A DNA stretch of 64,000 nt from Candidatus Multivoradales bacterium (GTDB lineage: Bacteria; Acidobacteriota; Thermoanaerobaculia; Multivoradales; J023), in NCBI GenBank assembly GCA_965248925.1, contig CBDFLE010000006.1, forward strand, positions 800,001-864,000, read 5' to 3'. The position numbers were made by a program, and so were the translations under genes. Shown here in pieces: positions 15,226 to 48,600 of the stretch. Numbering within the stretch: the first letter of the stretch is position 1; each line of letters starts with the position of its first letter. The notes beneath the pieces were generated by a model. That model had not been told where the DNA came from. It was given only the letters and a program-made list of their open reading frames with translations, and ran no database searches.

Positions 15226-15267
15226 GCCCGAAGTGGGCTCTTGGCGAACCCGGCGGAGTCCGCAGGC

Positions 15268-16344: not shown

Positions 16345-16483
16345 GAGTTTCTCCAGAATTGGGCTATCCCGTGCATGGCCAGTCGGCCTGCGGTGCCCGT
16401 TAGTCATTTTCTGTGAGAACCCGCCCATTATGTCAGAAGGCGCAAGGGCGACAGAACTACCCTTTTTGCCAATCTCTACCGGC

Positions 16484-17761: not shown

Positions 17762-17764
17762 GCT

Positions 17765-18877: not shown

Positions 18878-18890
18878 TCCTCGGCCGGGC

Positions 18891-29692: not shown

Positions 29693-32467
29693 TCACTCAT
29701 CACTGATCTCGACCATGCCTTCGATTCCGAGGTCTGCCAGTGCCTGATGTAGATCGGCGCACAAGCTCTTGACCACCGCCCCATCAACCGTGACGCGCAA
29801 GTCAATCCCAACCTTCAGATCGGCACCAGACCGCAACTTGGGAAGCAGTTTCGTGCCAAGCCGATTCCACAACTCAGCCGGAACCTCCCCGTGGATGCGA
29901 AGTGCTCGCTTGCTGGCACTTGGCTCCAGGTCCGGGTCAGGCCTTGGTTCCGGCGCGGGCTCTTGGCCCGGTACGGATTCTGGATCCGGTGCGGGCTCTG
30001 GATCCGTACCGAACTCTGGTGGGGCAACCAGGATCTTTGCCCTGTCTTTCAAGAGCAGGAACACATCGGATTCGAAGGTGACCTCGTCCGGTCCGACCGG
30101 CCCGCGGAACCACACGCGCTCGTAGGTGCCATCCGTCTTCTGGCCGGAGGCCAGGCCAAATTCCCCTTTGCCGACGAGCTCGACGACCTTCGACTTCAGC
30201 ACGGCGTCGGGATCGACCAGTCGGGTCAACGCACCATTGAGGAAACTCTGCCGCAGACTCACCAACGGCCAGGCACCTGATTCCTTCAATGCTGGCGGCC
30301 AGTTGCGCTCGAGGTAGCCGGCACCCACCGACTCGTTGAGTACCGCTCTAGACTTGAGCGCAGTGATAATACGCCCGCAGAGGCTCTCACCGCCGCTGGC
30401 GTGCCCGGCGCCGAGGTCGATGACCGCCAGCCCATCGACTTCGCTGTTATCGGCAAACACTACGTAGCGATAGTCGCCCCAGACCTCGTCGCGCGCAGTT
30501 TCTTCGGCATCGGCTACCCTAGTCTTGATCTCGGCACACTCGGCAGGCGCGAATTCGCCACCGAGCGTGCCCTCAGCAATCTCAGTGGCAACCCGCCGCC
30601 ACGCGAGCCAGAATTCCACCTTTGCTCGTAGATCACGGCCCGGCTTCTTGATCACCCATACAATGGCACCAGGATAGAGGCGGGGCGACTTGCCGCGATG
30701 CTTCGTCCATTCAGCCAGATCTTCTCGCACCCGGCCGCTCCCCGACCAGTTGCTGTTGGGGTCAACCACCACCAGCGTAAGCCTCGGCGAGTCCTGAATC
30801 GCAGCCCCATCAGCAGGAAAGTACTGCCGTGGAATACTCGCGCCTTTGTCGAACTCCTTCTGAATCAACGACCTCATGGCCGGCTGAATCTCTGACTGCT
30901 CATCCAACGAAGCCCGGCGGTCGCTAACCACTTTCTTCAAGGTCGGCTGATGGCTGATCTTGAACCCGTCCGAGCCAACTCGGCGAATGAAGTAGGCCCG
31001 ATCCTCGAGGGCCAAAGTAGCGGTGTCTACCGATGTCGTGTCCACATCGGGTTCACCTAGCGCAAAACGCAGCTCCGGCAGGTGGGCCACCTTGTCTACT
31101 TGTCCACCCGAAGACTCGAATAGAACTGCCATCCCCACACGCCGGTGAATATCGAGTAGGGGGGCCTTGGTATCCGCATCCAGCGCGCGGGCGTGCGATT
31201 GTGCTCCCGCAATATCGGTTTCGATAGCTGCCATGAGGCGTGGCTCGCCGAGTTGGCCGAGAACAACGCTCCGGAGCTCAGGCTGGTCGAGGGGTGCCGA
31301 GCCGAGTGTGATCAGGGGCTCGCGGCGCGCCTTGGCGAAGGCATCCTTCTGCGCCCAGGAGATCCACTGGGCCAGCATGGCGAGGGTGCCTCTGGTCTGC
31401 TGAAACTGAGGCAATGCCTGCCATTTGCGTTGAAAGACCGAGAGTGTCGCTGGGTGGAACGGGTAGCAAGACTCGAAGCGGGCGCGCAGGTGCTCGCGCG
31501 CTTTGGCTTCCGTAGCAGTGCTGTCCACCGCCGTCCACTCAGGCGGCAGCCGCGCCCGGCGTTCGAAGCACCAGTCGGCGTAGATCTTGGAAACCTTCTT
31601 GCGCTGGCGTTCGGGTCCAATATCGTCAAACAGGCGCCGACGCACGACTTCGCCGATCTCGGCTTCGTCGTTGGCGATCAGATCCTTGGCCACTCGCCTC
31701 ACGACCTTGGTGATCTTCTCCTGCCACTCGAGATCGAATTCGGTCATCTCGACCTGGCTGCGCGGCAGGCTGATCACCACCGCCCCCCGCGTGGTGGCGG
31801 TCATTGCCACGGTCAGGTTCTGGATGAATGCGTAGAAGGAGTCGGCGAGCTTGCGATGACGGTTGACGAAGTTCAATACCTCGTCAAAGAGCACCAGGAC
31901 CGGCGCGTTCGCAGCGGTAAAAATTCGCCCCAAGGCCTCTGTGCCGGGGGGCGTCGTCTTTGCTTCCGTGCCGAGTTCAGCTACGCCTCGATCGCCAGCG
32001 ATCTGACCGGCAAGATCGATCCAGGGCGTCTCGCGCCCTTCTCGAGGATCCCAGGCGTTGCCAACAAATGCCGCGACCTTCGCTTGCGGCGCTTGCGAGA
32101 GACCGGCACCTTGCAGCAGGTCAGCGACCCCGTCCAGACCGTTCACGTCATGGCCGGAAGTGACCAGATGATAGAGGGCTGTCAAGGTGTGCGTCTTGCC
32201 GCCGCCAAACTGAGTCACCAGCATCATCACCGGCGACGTGTTCGCCGTTTTCCCGGCCAATCGGCGCAGCACCATCCCAGAATGTTCACGCAGAGCCCGG
32301 GTAAAGCAGGTGCGGGCGAAGAATTGGGTCGGGTCGCGATAGTCTTCCGGCGCCGTCCCGCCCACCACCTGTTCCAGATGGATGGCGAACTCGTCGGGAT
32401 TGAAGGAGCGTCCTTCGCGCACCTCCTGGCGCGGTGTGGCGACTTTGTACCAGGGTTCGAGAGCCAT
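29693..32467 (-). CDS. DUF499 AAA+ ATPase (BrxC-related)
   Basis: EFAIHL, TQFGGGKTH Walker A, LFDE Walker B, YPFHP, FQQTRGTL. Confidence 0.9.
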   Translation of the reverse strand: MALEPWYKVATPRQEVREGRSFNPDEFAIHLEQVVGGTAPEDYRDPTQFFARTCFTRALREHSGMVLRRLAGKTANTSPVMMLVTQFGGGKTHTLTALYHLVTSGHDVNGLDGVADLLQGAGLSQAPQAKVAAFVGNAWDPREGRETPWIDLAGQIAGDRGVAELGTEAKTTPPGTEALGRIFTAANAPVLVLFDEVLNFVNRHRKLADSFYAFIQNLTVAMTATTRGAVVISLPRSQVEMTEFDLEWQEKITKVVRRVAKDLIANDEAEIGEVVRRRLFDDIGPERQRKKVSKIYADWCFERRARLPPEWTAVDSTATEAKAREHLRARFESCYPFHPATLSVFQRKWQALPQFQQTRGTLAMLAQWISWAQKDAFAKARREPLITLGSAPLDQPELRSVVLGQLGEPRLMAAIETDIAGAQSHARALDADTKAPLLDIHRRVGMAVLFESSGGQVDKVAHLPELRFALGEPDVDTTSVDTATLALEDRAYFIRRVGSDGFKISHQPTLKKVVSDRRASLDEQSEIQPAMRSLIQKEFDKGASIPRQYFPADGAAIQDSPRLTLVVVDPNSNWSGSGRVREDLAEWTKHRGKSPRLYPGAIVWVIKKPGRDLRAKVEFWLAWRRVATEIAEGTLGGEFAPAECAEIKTRVADAEETARDEVWGDYRYVVFADNSEVDGLAVIDLGAGHASGGESLCGRIITALKSRAVLNESVGAGYLERNWPPALKESGAWPLVSLRQSFLNGALTRLVDPDAVLKSKVVELVGKGEFGLASGQKTDGTYERVWFRGPVGPDEVTFESDVFLLLKDRAKILVAPPEFGTDPEPAPDPESVPGQEPAPEPRPDPDLEPSASKRALRIHGEVPAELWNRLGTKLLPKLRSGADLKVGIDLRVTVDGAVVKSLCADLHQALADLGIEGMVEISDE

Positions 32468-32471
32468 AGGG

Positions 32472-33437
32472 TTACTCCATGGGCCAGCGCAGTTTGTCGA
32501 AGAGCGCCAAAGATGACTTCTTTAGTCGGGCGAGATTCGCATAGGCGATCGGTGCGAAGCTTTGCTTGCAATCGAATGCACGGTAACGGAATCCGTCGGT
32601 TACCACCACGTCTCGGGGAGTACCTAGTTTAGCTACATACGCTTCCGCTTGCTGACGTGCACCTTCGAGCCCGGTACCGAGGCGCTTGGCCTCGATCACG
32701 AAGCAGCAGCTCTCCGGCCTGCGTGGCAGCGCTTCGAAAAGTGCCACGTCGATACGGCGCCATTCGATGGCGATGTTCTCTGGTGGCCAGCCGAGTGCTC
32801 GCAAGAACGGCACGGTGAAGTGGGCTACCATCTCATTCTCGTTGGGGGCGGCACCCATGCGCTCCTCGTCACCATACAGTCCGGCCAAGTCCCGCGCCAA
32901 GCCCACCACGTTGCGCAGATTCGCCGGCACCTCGTCCAACGGCGCTTCCACCGCCGGCAGAACGGGCAGTGGCGCCTCTTGCCAGCGAGTGAGGCCAGAA
33001 GCGAGGAAGCTATGAGCATAATCCAGCACCTCGGCACTCTGCACTCGCGAGCAGCGCATCGGGCTAGCACCCAAGACGGAGCCTTCAAAGCGGTACGTTT
33101 CCGGCAACGGGCACCAGCGCACTCTCCTACCGTGCCGTAGATCCCAACCGTTGACGTCATCGAACGGCTTCAGGTACTCGTACCCACCGGCTACCAGGCC
33201 GACCGCGGCAATGGTGTCAACGGCGGTACGGAGGAGCAGAAGATCGTCGACCTCGAGGTCTTGCGCAAAGCGGCGCAAGAAACCGTACTTCTTGCCGTGA
33301 CCATGTTCTGGTCGCCAGGGGCCATCCCCACCCGGGCCGAGCAGCGCCACACCGTATTTCAGAAAGACCTCGGCATATGGGCGGCCCACCGGCCCGCCCG
33401 AGATCTGCCAGACGGCGGGAGTGCGCGCCCCCCTCAT
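32472..33437 (-). CDS. Putative restriction endonuclease: N-terminal PUA/EVE-like domain plus HsdR-N-like PD-(D/E)XK domain
   Basis: NE..V...VPFLRALGW, IDVAL, IEAK, QA..Y and VVTDG motifs in the C-terminal half. Confidence 0.65.
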   Translation of the reverse strand: MRGARTPAVWQISGGPVGRPYAEVFLKYGVALLGPGGDGPWRPEHGHGKKYGFLRRFAQDLEVDDLLLLRTAVDTIAAVGLVAGGYEYLKPFDDVNGWDLRHGRRVRWCPLPETYRFEGSVLGASPMRCSRVQSAEVLDYAHSFLASGLTRWQEAPLPVLPAVEAPLDEVPANLRNVVGLARDLAGLYGDEERMGAAPNENEMVAHFTVPFLRALGWPPENIAIEWRRIDVALFEALPRRPESCCFVIEAKRLGTGLEGARQQAEAYVAKLGTPRDVVVTDGFRYRAFDCKQSFAPIAYANLARLKKSSLALFDKLRWPME

Positions 33438-34584
33438 CGGCCTGCCCTCATCCGCGCCGCCTTCCAATCAGCAGATCTCACCCCGTCCTGCCCCATCGGC
33501 TCTGGACGAACTTGACTGCCTCGTTGATCGGGAGGGCCCGGGTGGCGTTGCCTGAGCGAAGGAAGAAGGTCGCGCTCGGACCCTCCTTAACGTACACCGC
33601 GTGATCACACGCCTCGATGGTGATCTGACAAACGTCCTGGCCGTCGATCGCGTGAAAGGTGACCGTGAGAAACGGCGCCACGGCCTCGCCCAAGTCTCTC
33701 CCCGCGAGTTGCCTCAGGTGCAGCTCGAAGCCGTCCCGGTCCTTCTTCCTCAGAGAGTCGTAGTCCGTGCCGATCCCAACGGCCTTGCCGTCGTCATCGA
33801 CACCGATGAGCAGGGTGCCGCCGTTCTTGCTGTTCAAGAACCCGGCCGCTGTCTTGATGACGACCTTCTCCAGCGCCTTGTTGACCTTGCCCTCCCTGCG
33901 GTCCCAACGCAGGCTCGACTTGAACTCGAAGGTGTCGCTCTCACCGGCAGCCATGCGCTGCCTCACTGCCGCCTCGTCGGTGGGATCGTCGGAATCGACC
34001 GGCGACCAGCTGGCGATGAAAACATTCATCGCTTCGGCGAGCTGATGGCGGCGTGCGGCCAGGAAGTCGAGGTAGTTCTCGGGATCCCAGAGCGTGCGGT
34101 CCATGGGGACGCACTGGGCGCGCAGAGCGCCAGGCTGGTTGTCCTCCACCTGCGGCAGGTACTTGTCGGGCGGGGTCGACGAGATCGACCGGTTCGCTTT
34201 TCGGGTGAGGAAGGCTCGGTTGGCCAGCTTGCCTATTCCGACGAAACTGACCAGCCATTCCGATCGAAACCGACCACTTGTCGGAGCGAAGCGACGCTGG
34301 CGCTCTCCTCAGTTGTAAGTGTCCACTTTCGCTGTAGCTGGAGCCCTCCTTCCGGCTCTTCTTCTTGATTGATTGTATTCAAATAACCCGTCGTCGGGGC
34401 TGTGCGTAGCTGTGGGAAACGCAGGTTGGGGGGCAGGGGGGCGTTTTCCAAGCGGTTGTGGGAATCGCAGAGCGATTTCCACAACCGCGGCAGCTTCCAC
34501 AGTCCATCTTGGGTCGGGTCCGGATCGGGCCGCAGGCCCGCTGATGGGTCAGGATCGGCGATCGCTTCAGCATGCTCTTGGATC

Positions 34585-35349
34585 TCACCTTGCCTCTCGC
34601 TGGGCGGCCTTGCGAATACCGCCGGCTCTCTTCGCCCGCATGGAGTCACCGTCCACCGCGAGCTTGTAGGCGCCGTGGACAATGCGATCGAGGATGGCGT
34701 CGGCCAAGGTCGGATCGCCGATGACCTCGTACCAGCTCTCAACCGGTAGCTGGGAGGTCACCAGCGTGGAGCGGTTGCCGTAGCGGTCCTCAAGAATCTC
34801 GAGCAGGTCGCGCCGCTCGCTGGCCCCGATCGGCGCCAGCCCCCAGTCGTCGAGGATGAGCAGGTCTGTGCGAGCATAGCTCTTGAGCAGCTTCTCGTAG
34901 CTACCATCACCCCGCGCGATGGCGAGCTGGCGAAACAGCCTCGGCACCCGCAGGTACAAAGCGGTGTAACCCTCCCGACATGCCTTGTGCGCGAAGGCGC
35001 AGGCGAGAAAGGTCTTGCCCACCCCGGCCTTGCCGGTGATCAGCACGTTGAGATGCTCGGCGATCCACTGGCACGAGGCCAGGCGCAGGATCTGGCCTTT
35101 GTCCAGGCCCCTCTTGGCTCGCCAGTCGATGTCTTCGATGGCCGCCTGCTCGCGCAGCTTGGCTTTTCGCAACCGCGCTATCAAGCGGCGGCTGGATCGC
35201 TCGGTCGCTTCGCGCTCGACCAGCAGCCCGAGGCGCTCTTCGAAGGAGAGCTCTGAGACATCGACCATCGACAGCTGCTCCTCAAAGGCTTTGGCCATAC
35301 CGTGGAGCTTGAGCGCGGCGAGTTGATCGAGCGTCGCGTGCCTCAGCAT
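34585..35349 (-). CDS. istB: IS21 helper ATPase IstB
   Basis: GKAGVGKT, LLILDDWG, TSQLP and DAILDR motifs. Confidence 0.95.
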   Translation of the reverse strand: MLRHATLDQLAALKLHGMAKAFEEQLSMVDVSELSFEERLGLLVEREATERSSRRLIARLRKAKLREQAAIEDIDWRAKRGLDKGQILRLASCQWIAEHLNVLITGKAGVGKTFLACAFAHKACREGYTALYLRVPRLFRQLAIARGDGSYEKLLKSYARTDLLILDDWGLAPIGASERRDLLEILEDRYGNRSTLVTSQLPVESWYEVIGDPTLADAILDRIVHGAYKLAVDGDSMRAKRAGGIRKAAQREAR

Positions 35350-36917
35350 GGCGGCGTCTCCTCGCGGCGCGCGGCACTGTAGTAGCTGGCGCCGCGGACG
35401 TTGCGGTGCTCGATCGGCGCCGTCACTTCGGTGGGCTCGGGCGCTGCTTGCTGGTCCAGGCCGCTCTTCAGGATCGACTTCACGCTCTTGTAGGACAGGC
35501 CGTGAATGGCGAGCGCGCGGCGGCACGCAGCCTCCAAACGATTGGCACCATAGGTCTTGCCCAGGCGCATCAGCCCCAGACACGAGCGAAAGCCGTGCTG
35601 AGGATGGGAGCGGTTAAGCATGATGGTCTCCACCAGTTCGGCCGTCGCCTGGCCTGTTTTCGCCGCCCAGCTGATCAGCCGTGTCGGTGTCCACTCCAGG
35701 TACGCCTGGTGCGCTTTGGGCATGTGCTCGCTTTGGGTCGTGTGCCGGCCCCGACACCGATTCCGGCGATGAGCAGCCACACGCTTGCCGCGATCGAGCA
35801 CCTCCACCAGTTGCGCCGTCGCCCGCAGATCGAGCTGCTTCTTGATCAGCTGGTACGGCACACTGTAATAGTGGCCCTCGAACTCGACGTGGTAGTCCGG
35901 GGCAACGCGTACCTTCTTCCATTCGGCAAGCTCGTAGGGCTGGAGCGGCAAAGCACCCAGAGCAGGACGATCGACCTGCTCGAACAGCGCTCGGCGCGAG
36001 ACGCCCAACACCTTCAGCGGACGGTCGTTAAGCTCGACCAGAAGCTTCGCGATGCTCTCGTTGAGCTCTCGCAGGCTGAAGAACTGCTGGTTACGCAGCC
36101 GGGCCAGAATCCAGCGCTCCACTTGCAATACACCGTTTTCGACCTTCGCCTTGTCTTGGGGCTTCCTCACCCGCGCCGGCACCACCGCCACGCCGTAGTG
36201 CTCGGCCAACTCCGCGTAGGTGCGATTGATCTCCGGCTCGTAGCGGCACGGGCTGGTCACGCCGCTCTTCAGATTGTCCGGCACCACCAGCTCGCTCACC
36301 CCGCCCAGAGCCGCGAAGGTCCGCACATGAGAGCCGAGCCAGTCCTCCAGGCCCTGGCTCCACGTTGCCTCGGCATAGGTGTAGTTGCTCGCCCCCAGCA
36401 CCGCCACGAAGATCTGCGCTTCGCGCTCTTTGCCAGTCGCCGGGTCGATCACCCTCACGGTCTGTCCGGCGTAGTCGACGAACAGCTTCTCGCCCGCCCG
36501 GTAGGCTTGGCGCAGGCACACATCCAGGCGACCTTCCCAGATCCGGTACAGCTGACAGAAGCGGCTGAAACCGTAGCCGTCGGGATGGTCCTCCCGGTAC
36601 TCTTGCCACAGCAGCGACAGGGTTACGCCCTTCTTCTTCAGCTCGCCATGCACCTTGGTCCAGTCGGGCAAGGCTCGCTGACTACCCCTCCGAAGCGGCT
36701 GCGGCCGAGGGTACAGGCGTTGCTCCAGCTCAGCGTCGCTCAAAGCTGCTACTTGCTCCCAGCTCAGGCCTTCAACCTTGGCTCGCAGCAGGTAGTTGCA
36801 CACCGTCCCGTGGCCCAGCCGAACCGACCGTCCGATCTGGCGGTGCGACAGGCCATGCTGCCATTTCAGTCTCAGTACCTCGCGTATCTTGCGCATCGAT
36901 GTCCTCACTCTCGGCAT
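35343..36917 (-). CDS. istA: IS21 transposase IstA
   Basis: N-terminal HTH, VDYAG, VPDNLK, DKAKVE, YSVPY. Confidence 0.95.
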   Translation of the reverse strand: MPRVRTSMRKIREVLRLKWQHGLSHRQIGRSVRLGHGTVCNYLLRAKVEGLSWEQVAALSDAELEQRLYPRPQPLRRGSQRALPDWTKVHGELKKKGVTLSLLWQEYREDHPDGYGFSRFCQLYRIWEGRLDVCLRQAYRAGEKLFVDYAGQTVRVIDPATGKEREAQIFVAVLGASNYTYAEATWSQGLEDWLGSHVRTFAALGGVSELVVPDNLKSGVTSPCRYEPEINRTYAELAEHYGVAVVPARVRKPQDKAKVENGVLQVERWILARLRNQQFFSLRELNESIAKLLVELNDRPLKVLGVSRRALFEQVDRPALGALPLQPYELAEWKKVRVAPDYHVEFEGHYYSVPYQLIKKQLDLRATAQLVEVLDRGKRVAAHRRNRCRGRHTTQSEHMPKAHQAYLEWTPTRLISWAAKTGQATAELVETIMLNRSHPQHGFRSCLGLMRLGKTYGANRLEAACRRALAIHGLSYKSVKSILKSGLDQQAAPEPTEVTAPIEHRNVRGASYYSAARREETPPC

Positions 36918-39806
36918 CCAATCCTCCTTTCAAGGAGGCTGGAATACCCCAATTGTGAGGAGCGCGCTACCGTCGAACTCCGCCGTGGCCAGGATTCCGA
37001 TCCAATCTGACCACCCATTCCGATCGACCCGGAAAAGTGGTCACTTTCGATCGGAATCGATGGTCAGATTCCGTTGGAATCACTGGTCACTTTCAATCGG
37101 AATCGGTGGTCGGTTTCCGTCGGTGCAGGCAGCCAGCTCGTTGATCACCTTCTTGTCTTCGGTCCCGTCATACCCCTCTTTTCGGAGCACCGCCTTGGGA
37201 ACGATGTGGTGAGATTCAAGCCCGTTCTTCCTCCCCACTGCCTTGTCGTAGAGACGGATGCCGGTGAACCAATCCCGCGCCTCGCGGGCCCGGGCCAGGA
37301 CATAGCTGAACTTGGCCAGTGGGGTGCCTGCGCCTCCCACGGCCAGATCCGAGGCTTCAAGCTCTATGCGCCCACGCTCACGCAAGATTGCGCTCTCCAG
37401 CTCCGGGGTCGGATCCGGATCGCGTCCAGCAACCAGCGCCACGTCCTGCTGCAGCTTGGTTTCGGTCGAGCCGGAATAGCGCGCCCAGATCCCCGCCAGG
37501 TACATCCAGCGGATGAACCGGCGCTTGATGGCAGCCGTGGGGAAGGCGCCATCCTGTCGCGCCAGGTAGATCGTCATTGGTACCAGAACATAGTTCGTAG
37601 GCAGGTCCCGGAGATCGTCCACAAAGGCGTCGTGACGCAGGACGTTGACAAGGTGTTCGAAAGCGGTCTGCATCTTCTTCCACCCAGCCTGCAGGTCTTC
37701 CGCTGCGACGTGAATGAACGCGCCTTCCAGCATCACCGAGCCGGTGGCGACGCCGGCAAGGCAGCGCACAATGAAGTTGAAGTCGACTCCGAATCCGTGG
37801 CCGCGCATGGCGCCCTGGAACGTGCGCATCTCTTCGCGGGCCTCAGGCCAGATGCTACAGATGTGGGCAAGGGCAAGGTCGGCTTTGGTCAGGGTCGTAC
37901 CCGCCTTGTTCACCCGATTGAAGATGTCGACCACTTGCTCGACCGTGAACTCGTCACCGGAGACCTGGTCGACGGTGTAGGTGTAGTCGCGGATCTGATC
38001 GAGCCGACTCAAACGGCCTAGGTTCTGCTGGATGAGCTCGCGCTGCGCCTCCCCGAGCTTGCCCAGGTTCTCAAGCATTAAGCTCAGCCCCTGGCGCAGG
38101 AATTCATGGACGCTCATCCAGGCCGGGTTCTTGTTCATCAGCGTTTTCTGCCAGAACCGAAACTCCTCCGTCTGGATATTGAAATAGAGATCGAAGAAGA
38201 GGGATTCGCCCTCGTAGAAGGGTGGCGCCTTGCCTTCGAAGAGCACATGCAGGCTGGTCAGACGTTGCTGCCCATCAAGAAGCAGCAGCGAGTGACCATC
38301 CCCGCGCACCTCTCCGCCGCGAACCGCAGACGGCTTGTAGGTCTTCCAGATGAGCAGGTGCCCGGTGGGGTGCTTGCGGTAGAGGGACTGAGCGAGACCT
38401 CGGACCTGAGCGCGACTCCACACGTAGCCGCGCTGGAACTCGGGCAGCAGAATCTCTCCGCGGCGAATCTGACTGAGCAGATCCTGGATCGATCTCACCT
38501 CGTGCATGGGTTTTTCCTCGCCTCAATGATCATGGCCTCTAACTCCCTCATCGCGGTACCGCCAGGAGCATGGCGTCGAGGAGGCGTTTTTCCTCGCAGC
38601 CCTTGGGATAGAGCGCCGAGAGCGCGTTGGCGAGACGCAAGAAGTCCGGACCGCGGTCCTGCTCAGCACTGAGCAGACGGCGGAGTGCGTTGGCCTGACC
38701 GCTCGCTTGTAGCAACATCGCCGCATGCACGCGGTCCAGCGTCGTGGCGTCAGGGGACTGGAGCTCGGCGTCGCCGCCGAGGATCGCTTTCTTTGTACGG
38801 CTGCGGGCTTTCTTCTTTGGCGCGGCTGCCATCTCGGGGAATAGTTTGCCTTGCAGGTCGCCACTGGCATCGCTCTCTATCCAATCTGCAGCGGCGCGGG
38901 TACCGTCCTCGCCGAAAAGCGCCTTGGCCCGCTCAGATACAGGTAGAAGGCGCACCACACCCTTGTCTTGGACGATGATGCGATCGGTCCAGACGTCGAG
39001 ATCGATGCCCATCGGCTGAGCAATGCGGCGCACTACGTCGAAGGGGAGACTGAAGCCCTTGGCGGCGACCTTGGCGATTGCTTCGTCGTCGCCATCTCCT
39101 TGCTTGCCGTTCTCCTCACCTGCCTCGGTACTTTCAAACGTCCAGAGGAAGAGCGCGGTTAGCCGCGCGTCCTCTTCCAGCGCTCCGGTCGTGGTATCGC
39201 CGTTGCCGAGCACCTGCCCCAGCGCGGCGCGGCCCACCACCTCCCAAACCTTCTCCAGGTACTCGGGGAGGCCAACCTCGCGACCCTCGGGGGTCTCCAC
39301 CGTCCGGTAACGACTGAAGATCTCCAGCGCCGGCCCAATGCAGGCAAAGACCAGATCCGCGCCGCGGATGCCCTCACTCTGCAAGCGCTCGATCCAGGCG
39401 GCGACGCGGGGTGGAAGCTCACGCAGAACCTCGGCCCAGTCGCCGATCCGCGCGTCGTCGGGCCGCGGTCGGCAGATGAGGTGGACGCTGGTGGCGAGTG
39501 CAGCGGAGTTGCGGGCGCGCAGACGCGTTGCCATCTCGGTAGCGATAGGCCAGGATCCGGTGATGGTCCAGCCGCCGCGGATCATGCCTGAGAGGAGTGC
39601 TTCCCAGCCCTCCGTGGTCTTGTGGGCAAAGACTACCGACCCAATACCGTCTTCGCGAAGGATTCGGCGACCTTCCGCAAATGCAGCAGCCATACCGTCC
39701 TCGAAAAACTTTTGATCCTTGTCGCTATATCGCTCCGAATCCCAATGTGACATCTCACACAGTTCCCCAGCCTTTGGAGTCCAGAACTCCTGACATACCC
39801 TTTTTC

Positions 39807-42200
39807 TCAAATGTCCGGTTGAGCCTCTCCGGAGGTGTTCCGAGGCCCTGGGAAGGCCAGGCTCCGGGGTGGCGCCTTCTTGATCGCGAACCGCATCCGT
39901 AGCTCGGTGCCGGGGAAGTGGGTGGCGGTAGCGTTGAGTTCTTCGCAGACGGCGGCGATCGCCGCCGTCTTGTGGGGAGAGCTGAGCGGGTCGATGGAAA
40001 GGAGCAGCACGGTGTCGGTAACCTCCATATCGCCGCCGGCCGCGAAAGCGCTTTGGATCAGGGTGCGTCCCTCCTGCTCGGTGCGGCGGTAGTGGGGTGA
40101 TAGGAGCCGGAGAAGATCACCTTCGGCCTGGTAGGCGACCATCTTGAGAATATCGGTGAGGTGCTTGCGCTCGACGGACAGCTTGATGACATCCGCTTCG
40201 ACGACCTCTTGGACGGGGACGCGGACGGGGAGGGTCGCGCGCTGGTTCTCGAGTTCGGTGATCTGCTCTATCGCTGCCCGGACCCTGGCGGAGATGGCGG
40301 CGTTGGCGATCTTGAATCCGCGCATCGTGCGCCGCCGATCCTCGCGGTTTTCAAGAGCAGCGATCCCGATGTGGGCCCGGAGCTGCTCGAGATGTGCGTG
40401 AGCTTTGCGCAGCTCTGCATTGATCTTGCCGCGCTCGGGATTCGGCACATCGCGGGCAGCGTCCGCTGGCTCGGTGCCATAGTCCACCAGGGCATCGAGT
40501 GCGAATTCTTCGCGCAGGTATTTGAAGAAGTTCTCTTGCCTCCAACGATCGAACATGCGGTAGGCGACCTCGAGTGTGGAGAGGTCGCGGCGGGAGGTGA
40601 TGATGGACGTCTGGTGGCCGTTGTCGCAGAGGCGGGTGACCTGGCGCAGGTACAGCCGCTTGCGCTTCTTCCTCGGGCCATACTCGAGGTAGATACGCTG
40701 ATCGGCGAGGAGGTACTCGAGCTTCCGCCCGTGGATCGTGTCCTTGATCTGCCCGAACTTGCTCAACGGCACCGGACGAAAGGGGGCCTTTCGGTATGTG
40801 AGGATGTCGAACTTCTTGGCGATGAGCTTCGCAAACAGCTTCGGGCTCCAACCCCCACGGTCGAAGACGACGGTGACTCGCCGGTCTCCGAGTAGCTTTC
40901 GTACCTCTTCGAGAATGAGGGGAAGCATCGTCGCAAGCCCCTTGTTGGCCTCGGTGGGGACCACGAAGAGAGGCTCGCTCTCAGCATCGTTGACCCAGTA
41001 GTCGGTGGTGGCCGGCATCGCGATCCGCATCCGCGCTACGTGTGTCTTGGGAATCTCTCGGCCACCGTGGTAGGCGCGCACATGCCCGTCCACGTAGAGG
41101 AAGCCCATGGCATGGCCCCTGGTGGCGACCCGGCGCTGAGCGAGGGCGCGACCGAGATCCGCGGCCAGGCCATGCGCGGCCAGCCGAGCGAGCTTGTTGC
41201 GCAAGGTTTTCACTTCCGGCGCTCGGTCGAGCCCGAGAAGCTGACCCAAATGCCGGGGTGAGCGCTCCTTGAGCCCTTCGGGTCGCTTGACCCGCAACAG
41301 TGCCATCAGCAGCAGGGTTACCAGAGTGGTGCGCAGCCCATAGAAGGCCGGCCCGATGCTGCCGTACAGCTCCTGCGCGATGGAGAGCACGCCGCTGTCC
41401 ACCAGGGCGGGAATCGCCAGCAGAGCACCGGCGCCCGGTAGCTGGGTCGCCGCTCCGAAGATCGGCGCCGCATCATCGAGGAATCCCAGCCTCGCCAGCA
41501 GCCGATCGCTGGCGCGATCCGCTGGATCGAGGTCCAGCGAGAGGGGAACCTGATCTTGCTCGGACGCAGAAGCGGACAGTTTTGGGTCCGCAGCCGCTGG
41601 GTCACCGCCACCCTCAGCGTCGAGCGCAAGATCCGCAGTTTTCAGGGGGCCGTCGACCTGCTGCTCATCAGAGGCGGACAGTTTTGGGTCCGCACTCTCG
41701 AAGGGCATCGTCATCTGCACTACCGACCGCTCTTTCCAGCCCAGGCGCTTGGCGAGCTTGCGAACGGCCTTCTCATCGATGCCCAGCCGCCGGCCAATCT
41801 CGCGATTCGACACACCCTCGGCCTTCCAGCCGTTGACCGCGTCCAGGCGGCCCTGCGCTACCCGAGACTGACCCCGGGGAAAACCGCGCGGCCGGCCCAG
41901 AGCAGCCAGCCCACCTTCTTCGAAGCGGCGCTGATTCCGGCGCACAGTCCGCACATCACAAGCGAACGCAAGGGCCACCTCGCGTTGCTGTGCCCAGCCC
42001 AATTCAACGAGACTCACCATCGCGTGGGCCTCGCCTGTCCTGTCGCCGGCAGCGAAGTGAGCGAGCGGCATGCCGCTGACCACCACCACCCGATAGCCGC
42101 CCCTCTGCTGGAGGCGGCAGCGGTCGTTGATCACCACAACCCCATCGGGGACCCCGGCGTGGTCTGGGAACAGGACGGTGTGCTCGCTCGTCAGTGCCAT
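39807..42200 (-). CDS. 797-aa DDE transposase with two N-terminal HTHs
   Basis: APEVKTLR, YVDGH, FDRGG and RWRQENFFK motifs. Confidence 0.88.
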   Translation of the reverse strand: MALTSEHTVLFPDHAGVPDGVVVINDRCRLQQRGGYRVVVVSGMPLAHFAAGDRTGEAHAMVSLVELGWAQQREVALAFACDVRTVRRNQRRFEEGGLAALGRPRGFPRGQSRVAQGRLDAVNGWKAEGVSNREIGRRLGIDEKAVRKLAKRLGWKERSVVQMTMPFESADPKLSASDEQQVDGPLKTADLALDAEGGGDPAAADPKLSASASEQDQVPLSLDLDPADRASDRLLARLGFLDDAAPIFGAATQLPGAGALLAIPALVDSGVLSIAQELYGSIGPAFYGLRTTLVTLLLMALLRVKRPEGLKERSPRHLGQLLGLDRAPEVKTLRNKLARLAAHGLAADLGRALAQRRVATRGHAMGFLYVDGHVRAYHGGREIPKTHVARMRIAMPATTDYWVNDAESEPLFVVPTEANKGLATMLPLILEEVRKLLGDRRVTVVFDRGGWSPKLFAKLIAKKFDILTYRKAPFRPVPLSKFGQIKDTIHGRKLEYLLADQRIYLEYGPRKKRKRLYLRQVTRLCDNGHQTSIITSRRDLSTLEVAYRMFDRWRQENFFKYLREEFALDALVDYGTEPADAARDVPNPERGKINAELRKAHAHLEQLRAHIGIAALENREDRRRTMRGFKIANAAISARVRAAIEQITELENQRATLPVRVPVQEVVEADVIKLSVERKHLTDILKMVAYQAEGDLLRLLSPHYRRTEQEGRTLIQSAFAAGGDMEVTDTVLLLSIDPLSSPHKTAAIAAVCEELNATATHFPGTELRMRFAIKKAPPRSLAFPGPRNTSGEAQPDI

Positions 42201-42249
42201 GCTCGATCATGCCTCGGCACCGAAAAAAGCGGACAGTTTTGGGTCCGCA
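41572..42249. repeat. Three identical 21-bp quasi-palindromes GCGGACAGTTTTGGGTCCGCA
   Basis: Copies at 41572-41592, 41674-41694 and 42229-42249. Confidence 0.85.
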
Positions 42250-44023
42250 CCACCTCTGAGGGGCGGTCCTGTGTTTTCAGAGGGTTAGGAGGGGTAGGTC
42301 AGGAGGTCTGGAGTCAGCCCGTTCATTGGATCAAAGGGGTCGCGCAGCAGAGGATGGCCGGGCAAGATGCGCTTGAGCCATACGAAGAAGAAGTCGGAAA
42401 GGTCCGCGTAGGGAACCGCAAAGTAGTAAGGCGGATCCGTGAACCAAACCCCGGCGGACTGGTCCGGCAGCGGGTGATCCGTAGCATCGGCGAGTTGAAC
42501 TATCCCTTTTGAAGAGCGCGGTGACGCTTCGACGATTTTGGCAACGATGTCATAACCAGACTTCCAGTTGCCTGGCGCCTTGGCAATGGGAACGACCTCG
42601 GCAAAGTCCCACACCATCGGTAGGGCTTGGCGCCCAAATGTATGCTGCATTTTCTCGGCGGTCGCGTTCCAACGCGTGCAAGACATCCCACTCATGGCAA
42701 CGCGGCTCAACGCGCAGGCCAGTAGTTCCGACATTGCCTGTTCTTCAGTGTCCACCGCGAGTGCAATTATTCTTCCCAAGGTGATCAGTGCCACCTTTTG
42801 CCGTGCCGTGAAAAGGTCGCCCCAGGTATTCACTCCGTAGAGCGGCACGTTGAAGGTCCCGCTCATTAGTGGGAGTGTTTCATCCGGCACCGGGCACAAC
42901 CCCTGCTTACCACTACGTTCCCACTTTGCGAGGATCTCCGCAACACGCCCCTGCGCCTGGCACACTGCCGCGTAGTCACCTGCGGTCGGCAATCGAAAGT
43001 GCCGGCCCTTCTCGCCGGGCCTGAGCGTGACCACCGCCGATATCCTTGCCCCGCCTGTACGATTGCCTTCGGTGTCGAAGACTGCATCCGCGCCGCCGTT
43101 CTGGGCCGAGAGCTGTGCTCGCACCCGCTCCGGCGGAAGCACGCCACCACAGCAAGGGCAGCTCGCCTTGGCGCGGGTCACGGTGCCCGGCGCAACTTCC
43201 TTGTCGCTAGAGGGTTGGAAGATCTCGAATTCCACCCGCGGCGGCTGGCCCTTTGGTCGTACCGCCCTGATGCGTAGCGCCTGCCCACAAACAGCCTTCT
43301 TCTTGCATAGCCACAGCGAACGCAAGAGCGGAATCTCCGTCCCACAGTTGGGCGACTCGCACCGAACCGTCCGTGCCCAGAGATAGGCGATCGGCGTCGA
43401 ACCATCAGAGTCGGCCGGGTAGAGGGCACCCAGTTGCTTACCAGCAGCTTCGTTGATCTCGTCGCCTACTTTGCGCAGCTTCTTTGCCAGCTCTGGTCCA
43501 TGGTGTGGAATGCTCTTTAAGAGTACCTTGAGGATTAAGCAGGCTACGGGATTGAGATCGGTAGCGAAGGCCTCACAAGCAAGCCGCAATGCCTCCAGCG
43601 GGATCGATCCACCGCCGGAGAAGGGATCAACCACCAACGGTGTTTCCTCCGGGTGGGCGGCGCGGATAAGGTTGCGAGCGACCTTGAGATAGATAGGGTG
43701 AGAGGACATGTCCCAGCTGGCGAACGATCCGATGAACCAGAGTAGAGCTCTCTGAAGCTCTACGTCACCCGTGGGCGCCTGCCGCACTTCGCCCAAAACC
43801 CGCCGTGCCTGAATCTTGAACTCCTCCGGGCAGTGAGTGTCACACGGGTCGGGCAACAGTAGCGCCATTAGCACAGCCCGCGAAGACGCCAGTGGTCGCC
43901 GCGCCCACCACAGGTGCAACATCGAGGGATGTCCCTTTGGTCCCGACTTCCCCCGCGCCGCGTGCTTCGAAACCTCGGCGATCGGAAAGTCGACTTCGGC
44001 CAAGCGTTTGCACTGCTTGGGGA

Positions 44024-45169
44024 TCACTCGGCGTCTCCTTCAAGCAAGGCGGCTCGGCGCTCCTCGAGCACGGCCCGCGTCCGCTCGATCTCGGCGATCA
44101 GCTCGGTCTCATCGGGCAAGGCCGTGCGGTACTCCGCGGCCATGACTTGGTTGGGCAGACCCTCCAGTGCGTAATGTGCCACGGCGGCATCTCGTTCGGC
44201 GCACAGGATCAAGCCCACCGGCGGGTTCTCGCCCGCGTGGGTCCAGTGCTGGCGGGCGTAGTTGAGATACAGGTGCATCTGCCCCGCGTCGGCGTGGGTG
44301 AAGGCCCCAATCTTTAGGTCGATGACCACCAGGCAGCGCAGCCGCCGGTGGAAGAAGATCAGGTCCACGCGATACCAGGCAGCGCCCACCCGCAGGCGCT
44401 TTTGGCGCCCGATGAAGCAGAAATCGCTGCCGAGTTCCAGCAGGAAGGTTTCCAAATGCTGGATCAGGGCGGCTTCGAGATCGCTCTCGGAGTACTCGTC
44501 CTTGAGGTCGAGAAACTCCAAGACGAAGGGATCCTTGATCGCCTCCTGCGGAGTGACGGCTTCCTCGGGCAGAGCTTTCTGCCCCTTCCCCAGCATGGTC
44601 GCCTTGTCCTTCGACAGAGCCGTGCGCTCGTAGAACTGAGAGTCGATCTGGCGTTTCAGTTGGCGCACCGACCAGCCGCCGCGCAGGGCCTCGGTTTCGT
44701 AGAAACGGCGAGCGTTTTCGTTCTTGACCGAGAGCAGGCGCACATAGGCAGACCAGGGCAGAACAAAGCGGGATTCCTTGCCTGTGGGAGCCAATTCCGC
44801 AGACGACGTCGGCAGAATGTTCCTGGGCCGGGATTCTGCAGACGGTGTCTGCGCAATCCCGCGCCCCTCGGCCTCCGGCCAGGCCAGATAAAAGGCCTTC
44901 ATGTGCCAGAGGTTGCGGACCGAGAAACCCCGCCCATAGCGCGCCGACAAATCGGCGGAGAGACGCTCGACCAGCTGGTCCCTATAGCCGGCACGCTCTT
45001 GCCCACTCTGGTCATGCTCGACAATCCGTTGGCCGATGAGCCAGTAGGCCGTGGTCATGACCGAGTTGACCGTGTGGGCCACCGAGTTTCTGGCCTCTTG
45101 GACAACTCTTGCGAGATCAGCCAGAATCGCCTCGTAGCCATCCTGCTTCGACACGGGTTGGTTCGTCAT
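44024..45169 (-). CDS. YhcG/DUF1016 PD-(D/E)XK nuclease-family protein
   Basis: YWLIG, GRGFS..NL, LPWSAY, KDPFVLEFL, DL.FFHR.L, GQMHLY and PVGLILC motifs. Confidence 0.92.
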   Translation of the reverse strand: MTNQPVSKQDGYEAILADLARVVQEARNSVAHTVNSVMTTAYWLIGQRIVEHDQSGQERAGYRDQLVERLSADLSARYGRGFSVRNLWHMKAFYLAWPEAEGRGIAQTPSAESRPRNILPTSSAELAPTGKESRFVLPWSAYVRLLSVKNENARRFYETEALRGGWSVRQLKRQIDSQFYERTALSKDKATMLGKGQKALPEEAVTPQEAIKDPFVLEFLDLKDEYSESDLEAALIQHLETFLLELGSDFCFIGRQKRLRVGAAWYRVDLIFFHRRLRCLVVIDLKIGAFTHADAGQMHLYLNYARQHWTHAGENPPVGLILCAERDAAVAHYALEGLPNQVMAAEYRTALPDETELIAEIERTRAVLEERRAALLEGDAE

Positions 45170-48100
45170 CCTCCGTCCCCGTAAGTCGATCGATCCTCGC
45201 AGACCTCCATCGGTTGGGTCATCGCATCCACTTTCAAGTAGTAGTGCTGCACCTTGCGGACCTCATGCCAGTCGTACTGAATAGGGTCCAGAATGGGCGT
45301 CTGCAAAGTGGGCTCAGTGGCACAGCTAGTGACGACGTAGAGCCAATAACAGTCGCGACGGTCCTCGGCCACACGCTTCTCGTTGGGCGACCAGAGGATG
45401 GTACCGGTGGCTGCGGCGAGGCCTTTGACCTCGATCAGGCGGATCTCGCCGGATCGCGTGTCGAGGCTGGTGATGTCGTAGCCAAGGTTCTTGGCGCTGA
45501 CGTCCTTCACTTGGCAGCCGCGGTCTCGCTCGTGCTCAATGACGACCGACATCGCGACAGCCTCGGTCTCGAGATTGGGGCGGAGATTCTTGACCTCGCT
45601 CGACTCGCGCTCAGGATGGGGCAAGACCAGCACGCAGGTGAGCCGCTCTACCGCCTGTAACGACAGCGCGCGCTGGCGTCCGAGCTCCTGGCGGCGACGC
45701 TCGCGGCGAGAGAGCAGCTCGGCGTGGCGATTCTCTGCCTTGACCAGACGGCCTTCGGCACCTTGTTTGCCTTCCTCCACCTCGCTAGCAGCGCGGCCAA
45801 TCTCATCGTCGGTGCGCTGCAGCAGCTCGGTGAGCGAGAGCTCGACGTGCTCAGCAATGCACTCGACCTCATTGAGACGCTCCGCTCGAGTCTCCTCGAG
45901 GAAAGGCGTCAGGGCGTTCTCTTGCAGCCAGTCAACGGGATCAGCGGCGGCGGCAATGGAGGGTAGCTCGGCAGGTGCTTCGGCGGGGCTGAAGTTGCCC
46001 AGCGCACTCGGCTCGCGGAGTTCTGGTTCGCCGTTGTCGCAGAGTTCCACGGCGAACAGGTTCTCATGCACGATCCGGCCCAGTCCGTCCACCACACGGG
46101 CGCGGTAGAAGTCGATGCGCGCCGGCTCGTCGTGGGAGAGTGAATGGAAACAGGCGCCGTGGGCGAAGGGTTCCATGGCGCACGCGCGGGTGTGGCGGCG
46201 GATCGACTCGAAGAGCGGGTGGCCGGGGGTGACCCACTCCAGATGGTGCTCGTCCGCGGTCTCGCGGTCGGTGGAGCAGCGGGGGTAGTGGTTGGCGAGC
46301 TCGGGGAGCTTCCAGTCCTCCTCGCGCTCGTAGCGGCGCAGAACGCCAGGCGTGCGGGACGGCTCGAAGGTGTGAGGCAAGCTCTCGATGGGTTTGAGAT
46401 TGAGCGGCACGAACTCGGCCGCCTCGCGGATGAAGCGGGCGATGCTCTCCGGCACCAGGCGGCGCTCCTGGGCACGGGCACGGCGCTCGACCAGCATCTC
46501 CAGGTTGAGCTTCTTGGCGGCGAGGCCCTCCAGGGCGCTTTGGCAGATGGCACGGAAGCGGCTTTCGTCCACGTCTTTCAGGAGCCGATCCTCGAGGTCC
46601 TCGTCGCCGAGCTTGCCTGCGTAATAGTCGCGCAGCACGCGCTCGACGTGGGATGCGGGCAGCACCTCGCCTACGACGTTGAAGACACTGTCGTCGTCCA
46701 GTGCGTCGCGGATCTCCTGCAGCTTGTCGAGCAGGCGCCGCAGGACCCTGCCCTCGATGGTGTTGGTAGCGACGAAGTTGAAGATCAGGCAATCCTCGAG
46801 CTGGCCGTAGCGATGGATGCGCCCCATGCGCTGCTCGAGGCGGTTTGGGTTCCAGGGGATGTCGTAGTTGAAGAGGATGTTGCAGCACTGCAGGTTGATG
46901 CCCTCGCCCGCGGCCTCGGTAGCGACCAGAACCTGGATCTCCCCTTCGCGGAACTGCTGCTCGGTGAAGATGCGCGTCCCAGGCTGGTCGCGCGAGCCGG
47001 GCTTCATACCTCCGTGGATGACGCCGACGCGGAAACCCCATGATTCCAGGTTCTCGACCAGGTAATACAGAGTGTCCTTGAACTCGGTGAAGAGCAGCAG
47101 GCGCCGGTCGGGATGGTCGAAGAAACCCTCGCTCTCGAGCAAGGCTCTCAACTTAACAAGCTTGGCCTCGGCGCCGCTCTGCTCGACGCCTTCGGCCTCT
47201 TCCGCCAGCTCACGTAGCTCGGCGATCTCCTGGTGAACCTGGTCGGCGTTACCTGCCAGGGTGACGGCCTCGAGTAGGCGTTCGAGCTGCTCGCGCTCGG
47301 CATCTTCCATCTCTTCGATCTCTTCCCAATCGGGCAAGTCCGGAGCAGCGGTGCTGGCAAGGCTCTGAGCCTCCTTCAACCCCTTGTCGAGCCGTTTGGC
47401 ACGGTTCTCGAGACTGCGCCGCATGGCGCGGGTGCTGGAGGCGAGGCGGCGCTGGTAGAGGGCCATCAGAAAGCCGACGGCCCGAGCGCGTGGGTCGTCA
47501 CTCTGGGCCGCGGCGCGGGCGCTCTGACGTTTCACGAAGCGGGTAATCTCGCGGTACAGCTCGAACTCTTCGCCATCGATGGTGAAGGCCACCGTGTGCG
47601 GGATGCGCCTGGTGAAGATCTTGCGGGCTTCCCAGGTTCCGTCGTCGCCTCGCTCGGGGAAGTAGACCATCGCCTCCTTGGTGCGGCGCAGGTAGAAGGG
47701 CGCGCGCTGGCGGCTCATGGCCTCGCGAATCGAGCGCACGTCGGCGTATGCATCTCGGTCGAGGAGCTGCAAGAAGAGGGTGAAATTGACCGGATCCCCC
47801 TTGTGGGGCGTGGCGGTGAGCAGCAGGTAGTGGTCGGATGTGTCGCGCAGCAGCTCGCCCAGCTTGTAGCGCAGGCTCTTATGCGTCGCGTCGCGGGCCG
47901 ACATGCGGTGGGCCTCGTCGACGATGACGAGATCCCAGTGGACCTGGCGTAGCCCGGGCAGGACGTCGTCTCGCTTGGCGAGGTCAAGGGAAGTGATGAC
48001 CTTCTTCTGCTCGATCCACAGGTTGACACCGAACTGATCGCGCAGGTCGCTGCCCTTGAGCACCAGGAACTTTTCGTCGAATTTCTCCTTGAGCTCGCGC

Positions 48101-48600
48101 TGCCACTGGAAGGCGAGGTTGGCGGGAGCGACGATGAGGATGCGCTCGGCGAGACCGCGCAGCTGCAGCTCGCGGATGAGGAGTCCCGCCATGATGGTCT
48201 TGCCTGCGCCCGCGTCATCGGCGAGCAGAAAGCGGACCCTGGCGAGCTTCAACAGATGGTCGTAAACAGCCTCGAGTTGGTGAGGAAGAGGATCGACCCT
48301 GGAAATCGACAGACCAAAGTAGGGGTCGAATTCCCAAGCAATTCCGAGGGCAAATGCCTGTAGGCCGAGACGCAGAAGCCTACCGTCGCCATCGTAGCCA
48401 AATCCCGGCTGGTAAATGGAAAGGGAGGCGAGATCCTCCGCTGTCAGCTTGACTTTGCGAAAAAGCTCAGTCCGGGTACCAACGAGGCCAGCCATCCAGG
48501 AACCATCGGCACACTCGCGCACGGTCTCTACTCGCATCGGTTCGCTGAATAGGGCCCCTTCGAGGATCTGGGATTCCTGGAGAAAGCAAGCAATACTCAT
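45166..48600 (-). CDS. SNF2-family helicase with C-terminal DUF3883 (NOV_C) nuclease
   Basis: LADDAGAGKT, DEAH, TATPH, EGINLQ, EQRMGRIHRYGQ; GYDI...IEVKG...SPNE. Confidence 0.92.
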   Translation of the reverse strand: MSIACFLQESQILEGALFSEPMRVETVRECADGSWMAGLVGTRTELFRKVKLTAEDLASLSIYQPGFGYDGDGRLLRLGLQAFALGIAWEFDPYFGLSISRVDPLPHQLEAVYDHLLKLARVRFLLADDAGAGKTIMAGLLIRELQLRGLAERILIVAPANLAFQWQRELKEKFDEKFLVLKGSDLRDQFGVNLWIEQKKVITSLDLAKRDDVLPGLRQVHWDLVIVDEAHRMSARDATHKSLRYKLGELLRDTSDHYLLLTATPHKGDPVNFTLFLQLLDRDAYADVRSIREAMSRQRAPFYLRRTKEAMVYFPERGDDGTWEARKIFTRRIPHTVAFTIDGEEFELYREITRFVKRQSARAAAQSDDPRARAVGFLMALYQRRLASSTRAMRRSLENRAKRLDKGLKEAQSLASTAAPDLPDWEEIEEMEDAEREQLERLLEAVTLAGNADQVHQEIAELRELAEEAEGVEQSGAEAKLVKLRALLESEGFFDHPDRRLLLFTEFKDTLYYLVENLESWGFRVGVIHGGMKPGSRDQPGTRIFTEQQFREGEIQVLVATEAAGEGINLQCCNILFNYDIPWNPNRLEQRMGRIHRYGQLEDCLIFNFVATNTIEGRVLRRLLDKLQEIRDALDDDSVFNVVGEVLPASHVERVLRDYYAGKLGDEDLEDRLLKDVDESRFRAICQSALEGLAAKKLNLEMLVERRARAQERRLVPESIARFIREAAEFVPLNLKPIESLPHTFEPSRTPGVLRRYEREEDWKLPELANHYPRCSTDRETADEHHLEWVTPGHPLFESIRRHTRACAMEPFAHGACFHSLSHDEPARIDFYRARVVDGLGRIVHENLFAVELCDNGEPELREPSALGNFSPAEAPAELPSIAAAADPVDWLQENALTPFLEETRAERLNEVECIAEHVELSLTELLQRTDDEIGRAASEVEEGKQGAEGRLVKAENRHAELLSRRERRRQELGRQRALSLQAVERLTCVLVLPHPERESSEVKNLRPNLETEAVAMSVVIEHERDRGCQVKDVSAKNLGYDITSLDTRSGEIRLIEVKGLAAATGTILWSPNEKRVAEDRRDCYWLYVVTSCATEPTLQTPILDPIQYDWHEVRKVQHYYLKVDAMTQPMEVCEDRSTYGDGG

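Follow-up and report, generated by a model that had tools for sequence, protein, structure and literature searches.

Within a 64,000-nt stretch of the Candidatus Multivoradales bacterium genome (GCA_965248925.1, contig CBDFLE010000006.1, positions 800,001-864,000 of the forward strand; GTDB lineage Bacteria; Acidobacteriota; Thermoanaerobaculia; Multivoradales; J023), hereafter the window, we found that positions 33478-38507 of the minus strand hold a single defence gene interrupted by a recent insertion of an IS21-family insertion sequence (IS). The uninterrupted gene is predicted to encode one chain of 706 residues, in which a BrxU-like GmrSD core is followed by a flexible linker and a C-terminal Schlafen (Slfn)/AlbA_2 domain; the genes around it form an Hma (Type-1 BREX-related) locus. 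We consider it highly probable that this is a long-form GmrSD-Slfn defence gene, split within its Hma locus by a bursting IS, and we infer how the protein would work from its intact homologues.

The interruption leaves two open reading frames (ORFs) that look unrelated, and the case shows how an IS can hide a 706-residue defence gene from annotation. The ORF at 37080-38507 (minus strand, 475 residues) carries the GmrSD start and ends in 16 residues encoded by foreign IS DNA; the ORF at 33478-34149 (minus strand, 223 residues) is Slfn-only and carries the AlbA_2 domain. Two copies of the heptamer GCCAGCT enclose the 2,902 bp of the element (Table 1). When we compared 12 deletion variants, in which k = 0 to 11 flanking bases were removed along with the element, a single open frame resulted only with k = 1, 4, 7 and 10. 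Taking out one copy of the duplication (k = 7) gave 706 residues on the minus strand. An earlier note on this DNA had claimed that excising 34230-37131 and one GCCAGCT would restore a 706-residue chain, and the junction peptide that it quoted is present in our reconstruction. The IS entered after Leu-Ala behind the first conserved Asn of the HNH site and before the invariant Asn460; because it sits between these two conserved residues, a full-length protein containing either nuclease can no longer be produced. We found no second copy of the split gene in the 7.98-Mb genome.

Each part was recognizable by itself. The 5' part matched PF03235 (5.5e-27) and was 90% identical to residues 1-459 of the intact homologue P0003. 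The 3' part, which ends in a stop codon at 33478-33480 and contains the Schlafen/AlbA_2 region with Ex4ExK and Asp, matched PF04326 (7.6e-17), was 82% identical to residues 455-705 of P0003 and could be aligned to SLFN11 and SLFN13 chains. Supporting the earlier note's proposal of one gene, to which the frame restoration and the target duplication also point, the joined protein aligned from 1-706 to 1-706 without gaps with both P0003 (87.0% identity) and P0004 (89.0% identity), and was 87.2% identical to P0005 over 1-703. Of 8,000 candidates scored in a search with the N-terminal part, 5,745 proteins reached E ≤ 0.001. Intact fused homologues, which the earlier note had proposed to look for, were plentiful: PF03235 and PF04326 occurred together in 114 of the 120 best clusters, so that the proposal does not fail for lack of homologues, and proteins were 690-720 residues long in 111 of the 120. 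The six clusters without both domains were P0001, P0002, P0022, P0043, P0052 and P0105, the first of these being the window's own 475-residue fragment, already stored as a protein. The possibility that two genes lie in frame by chance was ruled out by the fused homologue clusters together with the gapless full-length alignment. When the joined protein was aligned with 111 near-full-length homologues (112 sequences), 206 of the 706 positions were conserved at 98% or more, and at columns conserved at 95% or more it deviated once, with Val for Phe at position 436, as does P0005. Since the joined protein fits the conserved columns, normal constraint acted on the gene up to the insertion.

The inserted element has the features of the IS21 family, namely istA and istB, inverted repeats, a 7-bp duplication and multiple copies. 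A query with its full length (1-2902) was recovered at 21 genomic sites with 99-100% identity, the window copy included, and one other copy was 100% identical; this recurrence at full length confirms the ends of the element independently. A second IS of the Transposase_29 family lies inside hmaB. It has 24-nt terminal inverted repeats and 25 further full-length genome copies at 100% identity (26 with the window copy), and taking out 2,540 nt restored a 979-residue hmaB frame. We checked its flanks for a target duplication and saw no clear repeat. Both IS types are thus in a genome-wide burst, and in this locus the two families are taking a defence island apart.

An IS-free form of the gene was seen in one 215-nt contig of run X5, which comes from a different sample and study. 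It links 34222 straight to 37132, with 7 letters common across the joint, 48 letters on the shorter side and 1 differing letter in 167, and gives direct, if weak, evidence of the uninterrupted form elsewhere. The presence of this junction as DNA in another sample, and the fact that both fragments are still open frames, would fit a split that is itself functional, with the IS serving as a reversible switch, or with the 475- and 223-residue fragments still acting and perhaps driven by the IS. We regard this as very improbable: the HNH active site is cut by the IS, and an insertion that belongs to a bursting element with over 20 copies, next to an hmaB broken by a second IS, looks like decay rather than regulation. 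In addition, in runs X1-X3, from the sample with the whole stretch, contigs end at the IS ends and none spans the empty site, although contigs cannot show absence. We therefore return to the reading of an inactivated gene, which is most likely dead in the window genome.

From its sequence, the GmrSD core is predicted to begin with a DUF262/ParB-like nucleoside triphosphate (NTP)-binding domain that contains DGQQR, which a helical linker connects to a DUF1524 His-Me (HNH) DNase. Pfam placed GmrSD_N at residues 7-216 and SLFN_AlbA_2 at residues ~553-689. We built a profile (A1) from 46 diverse fused homologues, 27-86% identical to P0003. It matched BrxU 7p9k at 9.1e-48 (residues 6-538 against 7-582), DUF1524 included, and its residues 539-697 matched the C-lobes of SLFN14, 11, 12 and 5, the rat SLFN13 C-lobe and CbCash (3e-10 to 1e-4). 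Together with PF03235 and PF04326, the BrxU match bears out the earlier note's placing of DUF262, HNH and AlbA_2/Schlafen in one chain. In the C part of the window gene, Gly-Glu-Ser...Phe-Glu-Phe-Lys and Gly-Val-Asp-Asp align with 5yd0 (rat SLFN13) at what we take to be the two Glu residues and the Asp that form the SLFN13 catalytic site. The E..EFK motif that the earlier note had read is thus kept, as Ex4ExK with a downstream Asp aligned to the rat SLFN13 active-site region; Ex4ExK has been named as the catalytic motif (PMC13056530). The likeness to mammalian Schlafens is to the C-lobe of the N-terminal nuclease of SLFN11/13/14, with which the Glu...Glu-x-Lys and Gly-Val-Asp-Asp stretches align, whereas the window family has one lobe, no helicase domain and a restriction-enzyme partner.

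An AlphaFold model of the intact P0003 had a mean predicted local distance difference test (pLDDT) score of 88.4, and its sole stretch below 50, residues 535-540, would form a hinge ahead of the Slfn domain. Foldseek searches ranked BrxU first (3.9e-17), followed by SspE and DndI; at lower ranks came 3lmm, an AlbA_2 protein, along with a number of Schlafens and the tRNase/DNA-binding domain of SAMD9. No NCBIfam model matched the fusion protein, and no PADLOC model matched the Slfn part.

Conservation across the A1 homologues was counted at the three putative sites. DGQQR was present in 44 of the 46, the Slfn set of Glu, Glu or Asp, Lys and Asp or Glu in 43, HNH Asn460 in all 46 and the HNH His in 38; seven of the eight without this His retain the Slfn set. 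When the window gene is read through, every motif of the three sites is kept, DGQQR and HH...N...N included. P0121, the nearest 50%-identity representative to P0003, is among the eight without the His.

These counts bear on whether the C-terminal domain is a nuclease at all. AlbA_2 might instead be a nucleic-acid-binding or sensor module without RNase activity, in which case the protein would simply be a type IV restriction enzyme carrying an additional reader. On GmrSD proteins it has been called a DNA/RNA-binding domain (PMC5714182), Foldseek also matches the SAMD9 DNA-binding AlbA_2 domain (7ksp), and reader-like domains occupy the same C-terminal slot in related GmrSD cores (RAMA and Mrr_N in P0197). 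A pure binding module would have no need of the Ex4(E/D)xK and Asp set, yet the set is retained in 43 of 46 homologues and survives in nearly all of those that lack the HNH His, and the toxicity of RorSlfn5 depends on the same motif, as its E15A,D20A mutant shows (PMC13056530). We therefore judge a binding-only role quite unlikely and keep to the reading of a putative RNase.

When P0003 was used for an exhaustive search, 13,496 representatives reached E ≤ 0.001, of which 6,153 reached 1e-10 and 814 reached 1e-30. The best 150 representatives at 50% identity comprised 44 with the core and the Slfn part, 56 with the core only (all ≤600 residues), 30 with the core and another C-terminal extension, 13 with the Slfn end only and 7 short pieces, and the Ex4[ED]xK pattern occurred in 42 of the 44. 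Among the 30 other extensions, Pfam found SLFN_AlbA_2 in P0227, where BLAST had missed it, added DUF4357 to the reader-like domains of P0197, and gave matches below its cut-off to DUF5655 in P0204 and, weakly, to HEPN_Swt1 in P0158 and P0206; the remaining 25 had no Pfam match in the extension. The two HEPN_Swt1 matches, in the same C-terminal slot, recall a listed fusion of HEPN to ParB(DUF262)+HNH (PMC3710099), which likewise joins a GmrSD-type core to a second RNase-type domain, although HEPN belongs to another RNase superfamily. On a quick FastTree of 104 complete core regions, in which some core-only rows may be broken genes like the split gene, the Slfn label has to change at least 16-17 times; the count is 17, with 16 of the changes forced by well-supported branches. 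This implies that the C-terminal module has been exchanged often.

The architecture itself is not new. DUF1524-group GmrSD proteins were noted in 2017 often to carry a C-terminal AlbA_2 (PMC5714182). The domain was taken there as DNA/RNA-binding, and the passages on it contain no RNase role, defence test or Hma context. More recently, 5,930 prokaryotic Schlafens have been classified, with DUF262.pSlfn forming class pSlfn7 (109 members, defence score 0.76; PMC13056530). The pSlfn7 list includes NC_017457.1 52940-55066, that is WP_014554916.1 (H3, 708 residues), which we found to be a full-length homologue (33% identity over 99% of P0003) with Pfam matches to GmrSD_N, GmrSD_C and SLFN_AlbA_2. 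The family of the window gene therefore falls inside pSlfn7, and by its domains the window gene belongs to a long, HNH-bearing form of that class, with which it shares an N-terminal DUF262, a C-terminal Schlafen/AlbA_2 with Ex4(E/D)xK, a single chain and a defence-island context. The window gene is thus a genuine member, inactivated recently, of an architecture already catalogued, and being most likely a dead copy it adds little to the biology as an instance; the long-form family itself, in which a single chain combines an entire BrxU-like restriction core with a Schlafen active site, is little described. No description of a GmrSD/HNH-Schlafen dual nuclease was found in the searchable text of the literature. 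'HNH' does not occur in the main text of PMC13056530, nor 'HNH' or 'DUF1524' in that of its preprint, and neither version contains 'GmrSD'; AlbA is likewise absent from the main text of Machnicka 2015 (PMC4619093). GmrSD-type HNH enzymes and Schlafen RNases have been listed as separate auxiliary or backup effectors (PMC12839542).

The class holds proteins of two sizes. Among the first 30 of the 109 pSlfn7 rows, nine ORFs are at least 2,100 nt long and 21 are ~1,750-1,800 nt (PMC13056530). EcoSlfn7 (L031, 589 residues) and a second E. coli member (L030, 598 residues) matched GmrSD_N and SLFN_AlbA_2 in Pfam, and GmrSD_C/HNH had no Pfam match in either; only the first ~260 columns of the family profile align to EcoSlfn7. 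With no HNH detected in it, EcoSlfn7, the one DUF262-Slfn protein tested so far, is a short form that by profile shares the DUF262 region alone with the window family, whereas the long form has a complete BrxU-like core. EcoSlfn7 lowered T7 plating 538-fold and also affected other T phages, T7 being the phage that it countered best (PMC13056530). Cleavage of tRNA, reported for a CRISPR-associated Schlafen (PMC13462974), has been shown for the pSlfn5 and Cash classes only (PMC13056530, PMC13462974). The EcoSlfn7 gene (E. coli UC4224, NZ_CP104472.1 4519514-4521283) belongs to a P2-like prophage, where it has replication/DinI-like genes on one side and the portal gene on the other.

That EcoSlfn7 defends with no HNH detected, that eight of the 46 fused homologues have lost the HNH His, Slfn being retained, and that fused domains are treated as sensors in the classification (PMC13056530) could all be explained if the Schlafen RNase were the only effector, with the GmrSD core, HNH included, as a sensor and NTP switch for pure abortive infection as in EcoSlfn7. 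We think this unlikely for the long form: HH...N...N is kept in the window gene and all close relatives, Asn460 is invariant, and the core is BrxU-like over its full length, BrxU on its own having been described as a defence system (10.1101/2024.01.29.577857).

For the long form we infer a dual action. The GmrSD core of intact homologues, gated through its ParB-like domain by NTP, would recognize invading phage DNA. The HNH site would then cut that DNA, and the Slfn site would cut tRNA as a second, growth-arresting layer, as in pSlfn5. The opening of BrxU is NTP-driven. Whether both nucleases are active in the intact long form seems to us evenly balanced, and their coupling as a two-layer response is a tentative proposal. 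Equally tentative is the wider suggestion that the long form may be a dual-substrate enzyme, in which one ParB-like NTP switch licenses an HNH DNase and a Schlafen tRNase, and that the family may have slid repeatedly from restriction towards abortive infection; the slide is suggested because the HNH His has been lost in some homologues, the module has changed at least 16 times and the short form has no detected HNH. Modified DNA as the trigger of both nucleases, which the earlier note suggested, would be only an analogy with GmrSD and BrxU. T7 DNA is unmodified and EcoSlfn7 acts best on T7, but that protein is a short form.

Several points weigh against our reading of the gene. The tested EcoSlfn7 shares only the DUF262 and Slfn domains with it, has no detected HNH, and provides defence data for the short form only. 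GmrSD_C passed the Pfam cut-off in one of four close homologues scanned (P0010, 24.4 against 23 bits), so that the HNH assignment leans for the most part on the motif and on the profile match to BrxU; with the His gone in eight of the 46, the DNase is not universally kept. The empty site was seen in one short, low-depth contig. Finally, that the gene is dead was deduced, and the N-terminal fragment and the Slfn-only ORF are both still open.

The earlier note missed the context of the gene, which is embedded in an Hma system that is itself broken by the second IS. Hma has been renamed as a BREX-related system (PMC12839542). PADLOC called HmaA, HmaB in two pieces (42285-44027 and 38548-39810) and HmaC, all on the minus strand, and the split gene, on that strand as well, is flanked by HmaB and HmaC, the position expected of HEC-05. 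Since hmaB is split and both ISs precede hmaC in the direction in which the operon runs, the Hma locus is probably inactive. HEC-05 and HEC-06 were defined as GmrSD-like genes embedded in Hma, HEC-05 being 99.2% identical to BrxU, and BrxU and SspE form intertwined dimers (10.1101/2024.01.29.577857). HEC-05 was also the best PADLOC model for the GmrSD core (N part 5.3e-36, P0003 1.4e-42). The window family thus resembles BrxU/HEC-05 in its profile match over the whole BrxU chain, in its best Foldseek and PADLOC matches and in being embedded, in the same orientation, in a larger methylation-based system; it differs in that BrxU has no Schlafen domain, Slfn being a swappable add-on on the core tree.

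Table 1. Features of the split gene, the two insertion sequences and the surrounding Hma locus (window positions)
Feature	Position	Strand	Details
HmaC, DUF499 AAA+ ATPase, Hma core gene	29693..32467	-	PADLOC 6.9e-96; PF04465
331-residue gene, second embedded gene, unknown family	32472..33467	-	directly downstream of split gene, 10-nt gap
3' part of GmrSD-Schlafen gene	33478..34229	-	predicted second HNH half (invariant Asn), helical region, short linker, Schlafen/AlbA_2
Target-site duplication GCCAGCT, 7 bp, left copy	34223..34229	.	identical to right copy
IS21-family insertion sequence, 2,902 bp	34230..37131	-	imperfect terminal inverted repeats, ends begin TGCCT
istB helper ATPase	34585..35349	-	PF01695 1.5e-76; NF038214 4.1e-80, above cut-off
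istA transposase	35343..36917	-	NF033546 transpos_IS21 1.9e-86, above cut-off; Mu-transpos_C_2 and rve
5' part of GmrSD-Schlafen gene	37132..38507	-	codons 1 to ~459; predicted DUF262/ParB-like domain with DGQQR, helical linker, first HNH half up to insertion
Target-site duplication GCCAGCT, 7 bp, right copy	37132..37138	.	identical to left copy
hmaB 3' part, DUF1156-type N6-adenine methylase	38548..39776	-	PADLOC HmaB 1.9e-23, profile positions 611-799
Second insertion sequence, ~2.54 kb, Transposase_29 family, inside hmaB	39777..42315	-	PF21804 2.5e-76
hmaB 5' part	42316..44027	-	PADLOC HmaB 4.7e-80; PF06634 DUF1156
DUF1016/YhcG PD-(D/E)XK protein, PADLOC candidate PDC-S02	44024..45169	-	4.3e-136; PF06250, PF17761
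HmaA, SNF2-type helicase with NOV_C domain	45166..48600	-	PADLOC 1.6e-170; Pfam

Comparable loci were found for the closer homologues. A Planctomycetota metagenome-assembled genome (MAG) with a homologue of 85% identity (L003) has the order HmaA, intact HmaB, fusion gene, 331-residue gene and HmaC, and the sequences corresponding to the two hmaB parts are contiguous there. The fusion gene lies between HmaA and HmaB in a Chloroflexota MAG (L004, 71%) and between two HmaB-like genes in L026 (68%). The long-form family occurs commonly in metagenomes and accompanies Hma loci in different phyla. Around the distant full-length homologues L001, L002, L027, L028 and L029 the window queries found no Hma proteins, the sole exception being at the edge of L029, where a short helicase-domain stretch matched HmaA; the surroundings of L002 and of L001, which lies on S. 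meliloti pSymA, are defence-island-like. In L026 (G073, 14574-18889) the second HmaB-like gene, downstream of the fusion gene, gave five separate matches and may be broken.

The 331-residue gene had no Pfam, PADLOC or NCBIfam match. Its atlas look-alikes, which serve as a lead only, are DUF8426 proteins with HSDR_N- or NucS-type PD-(D/E)XK domains, and it may be a further Hma-embedded defence candidate; it adjoins the fusion gene in L003 and was not found in L004 or L026. The PDC-S02 gene sits between hmaA and hmaB in the window and was not found at that place in L003.

A scan of genome contigs with a single protein query returned 2 loci, because such a query reaches close relatives only. Among 401 sampled genomes of the window phylum, 16 had a match at 1e-30, counting the window genome (G000); five besides G000 match nearly the whole query, and one of these five matches ends at residue 682. 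Two of the five (G164:C4:576573-578678 and G170:C1:1558488-1560614) contain one in-frame stop each, a TGA and a TAA, and may be further decayed copies.

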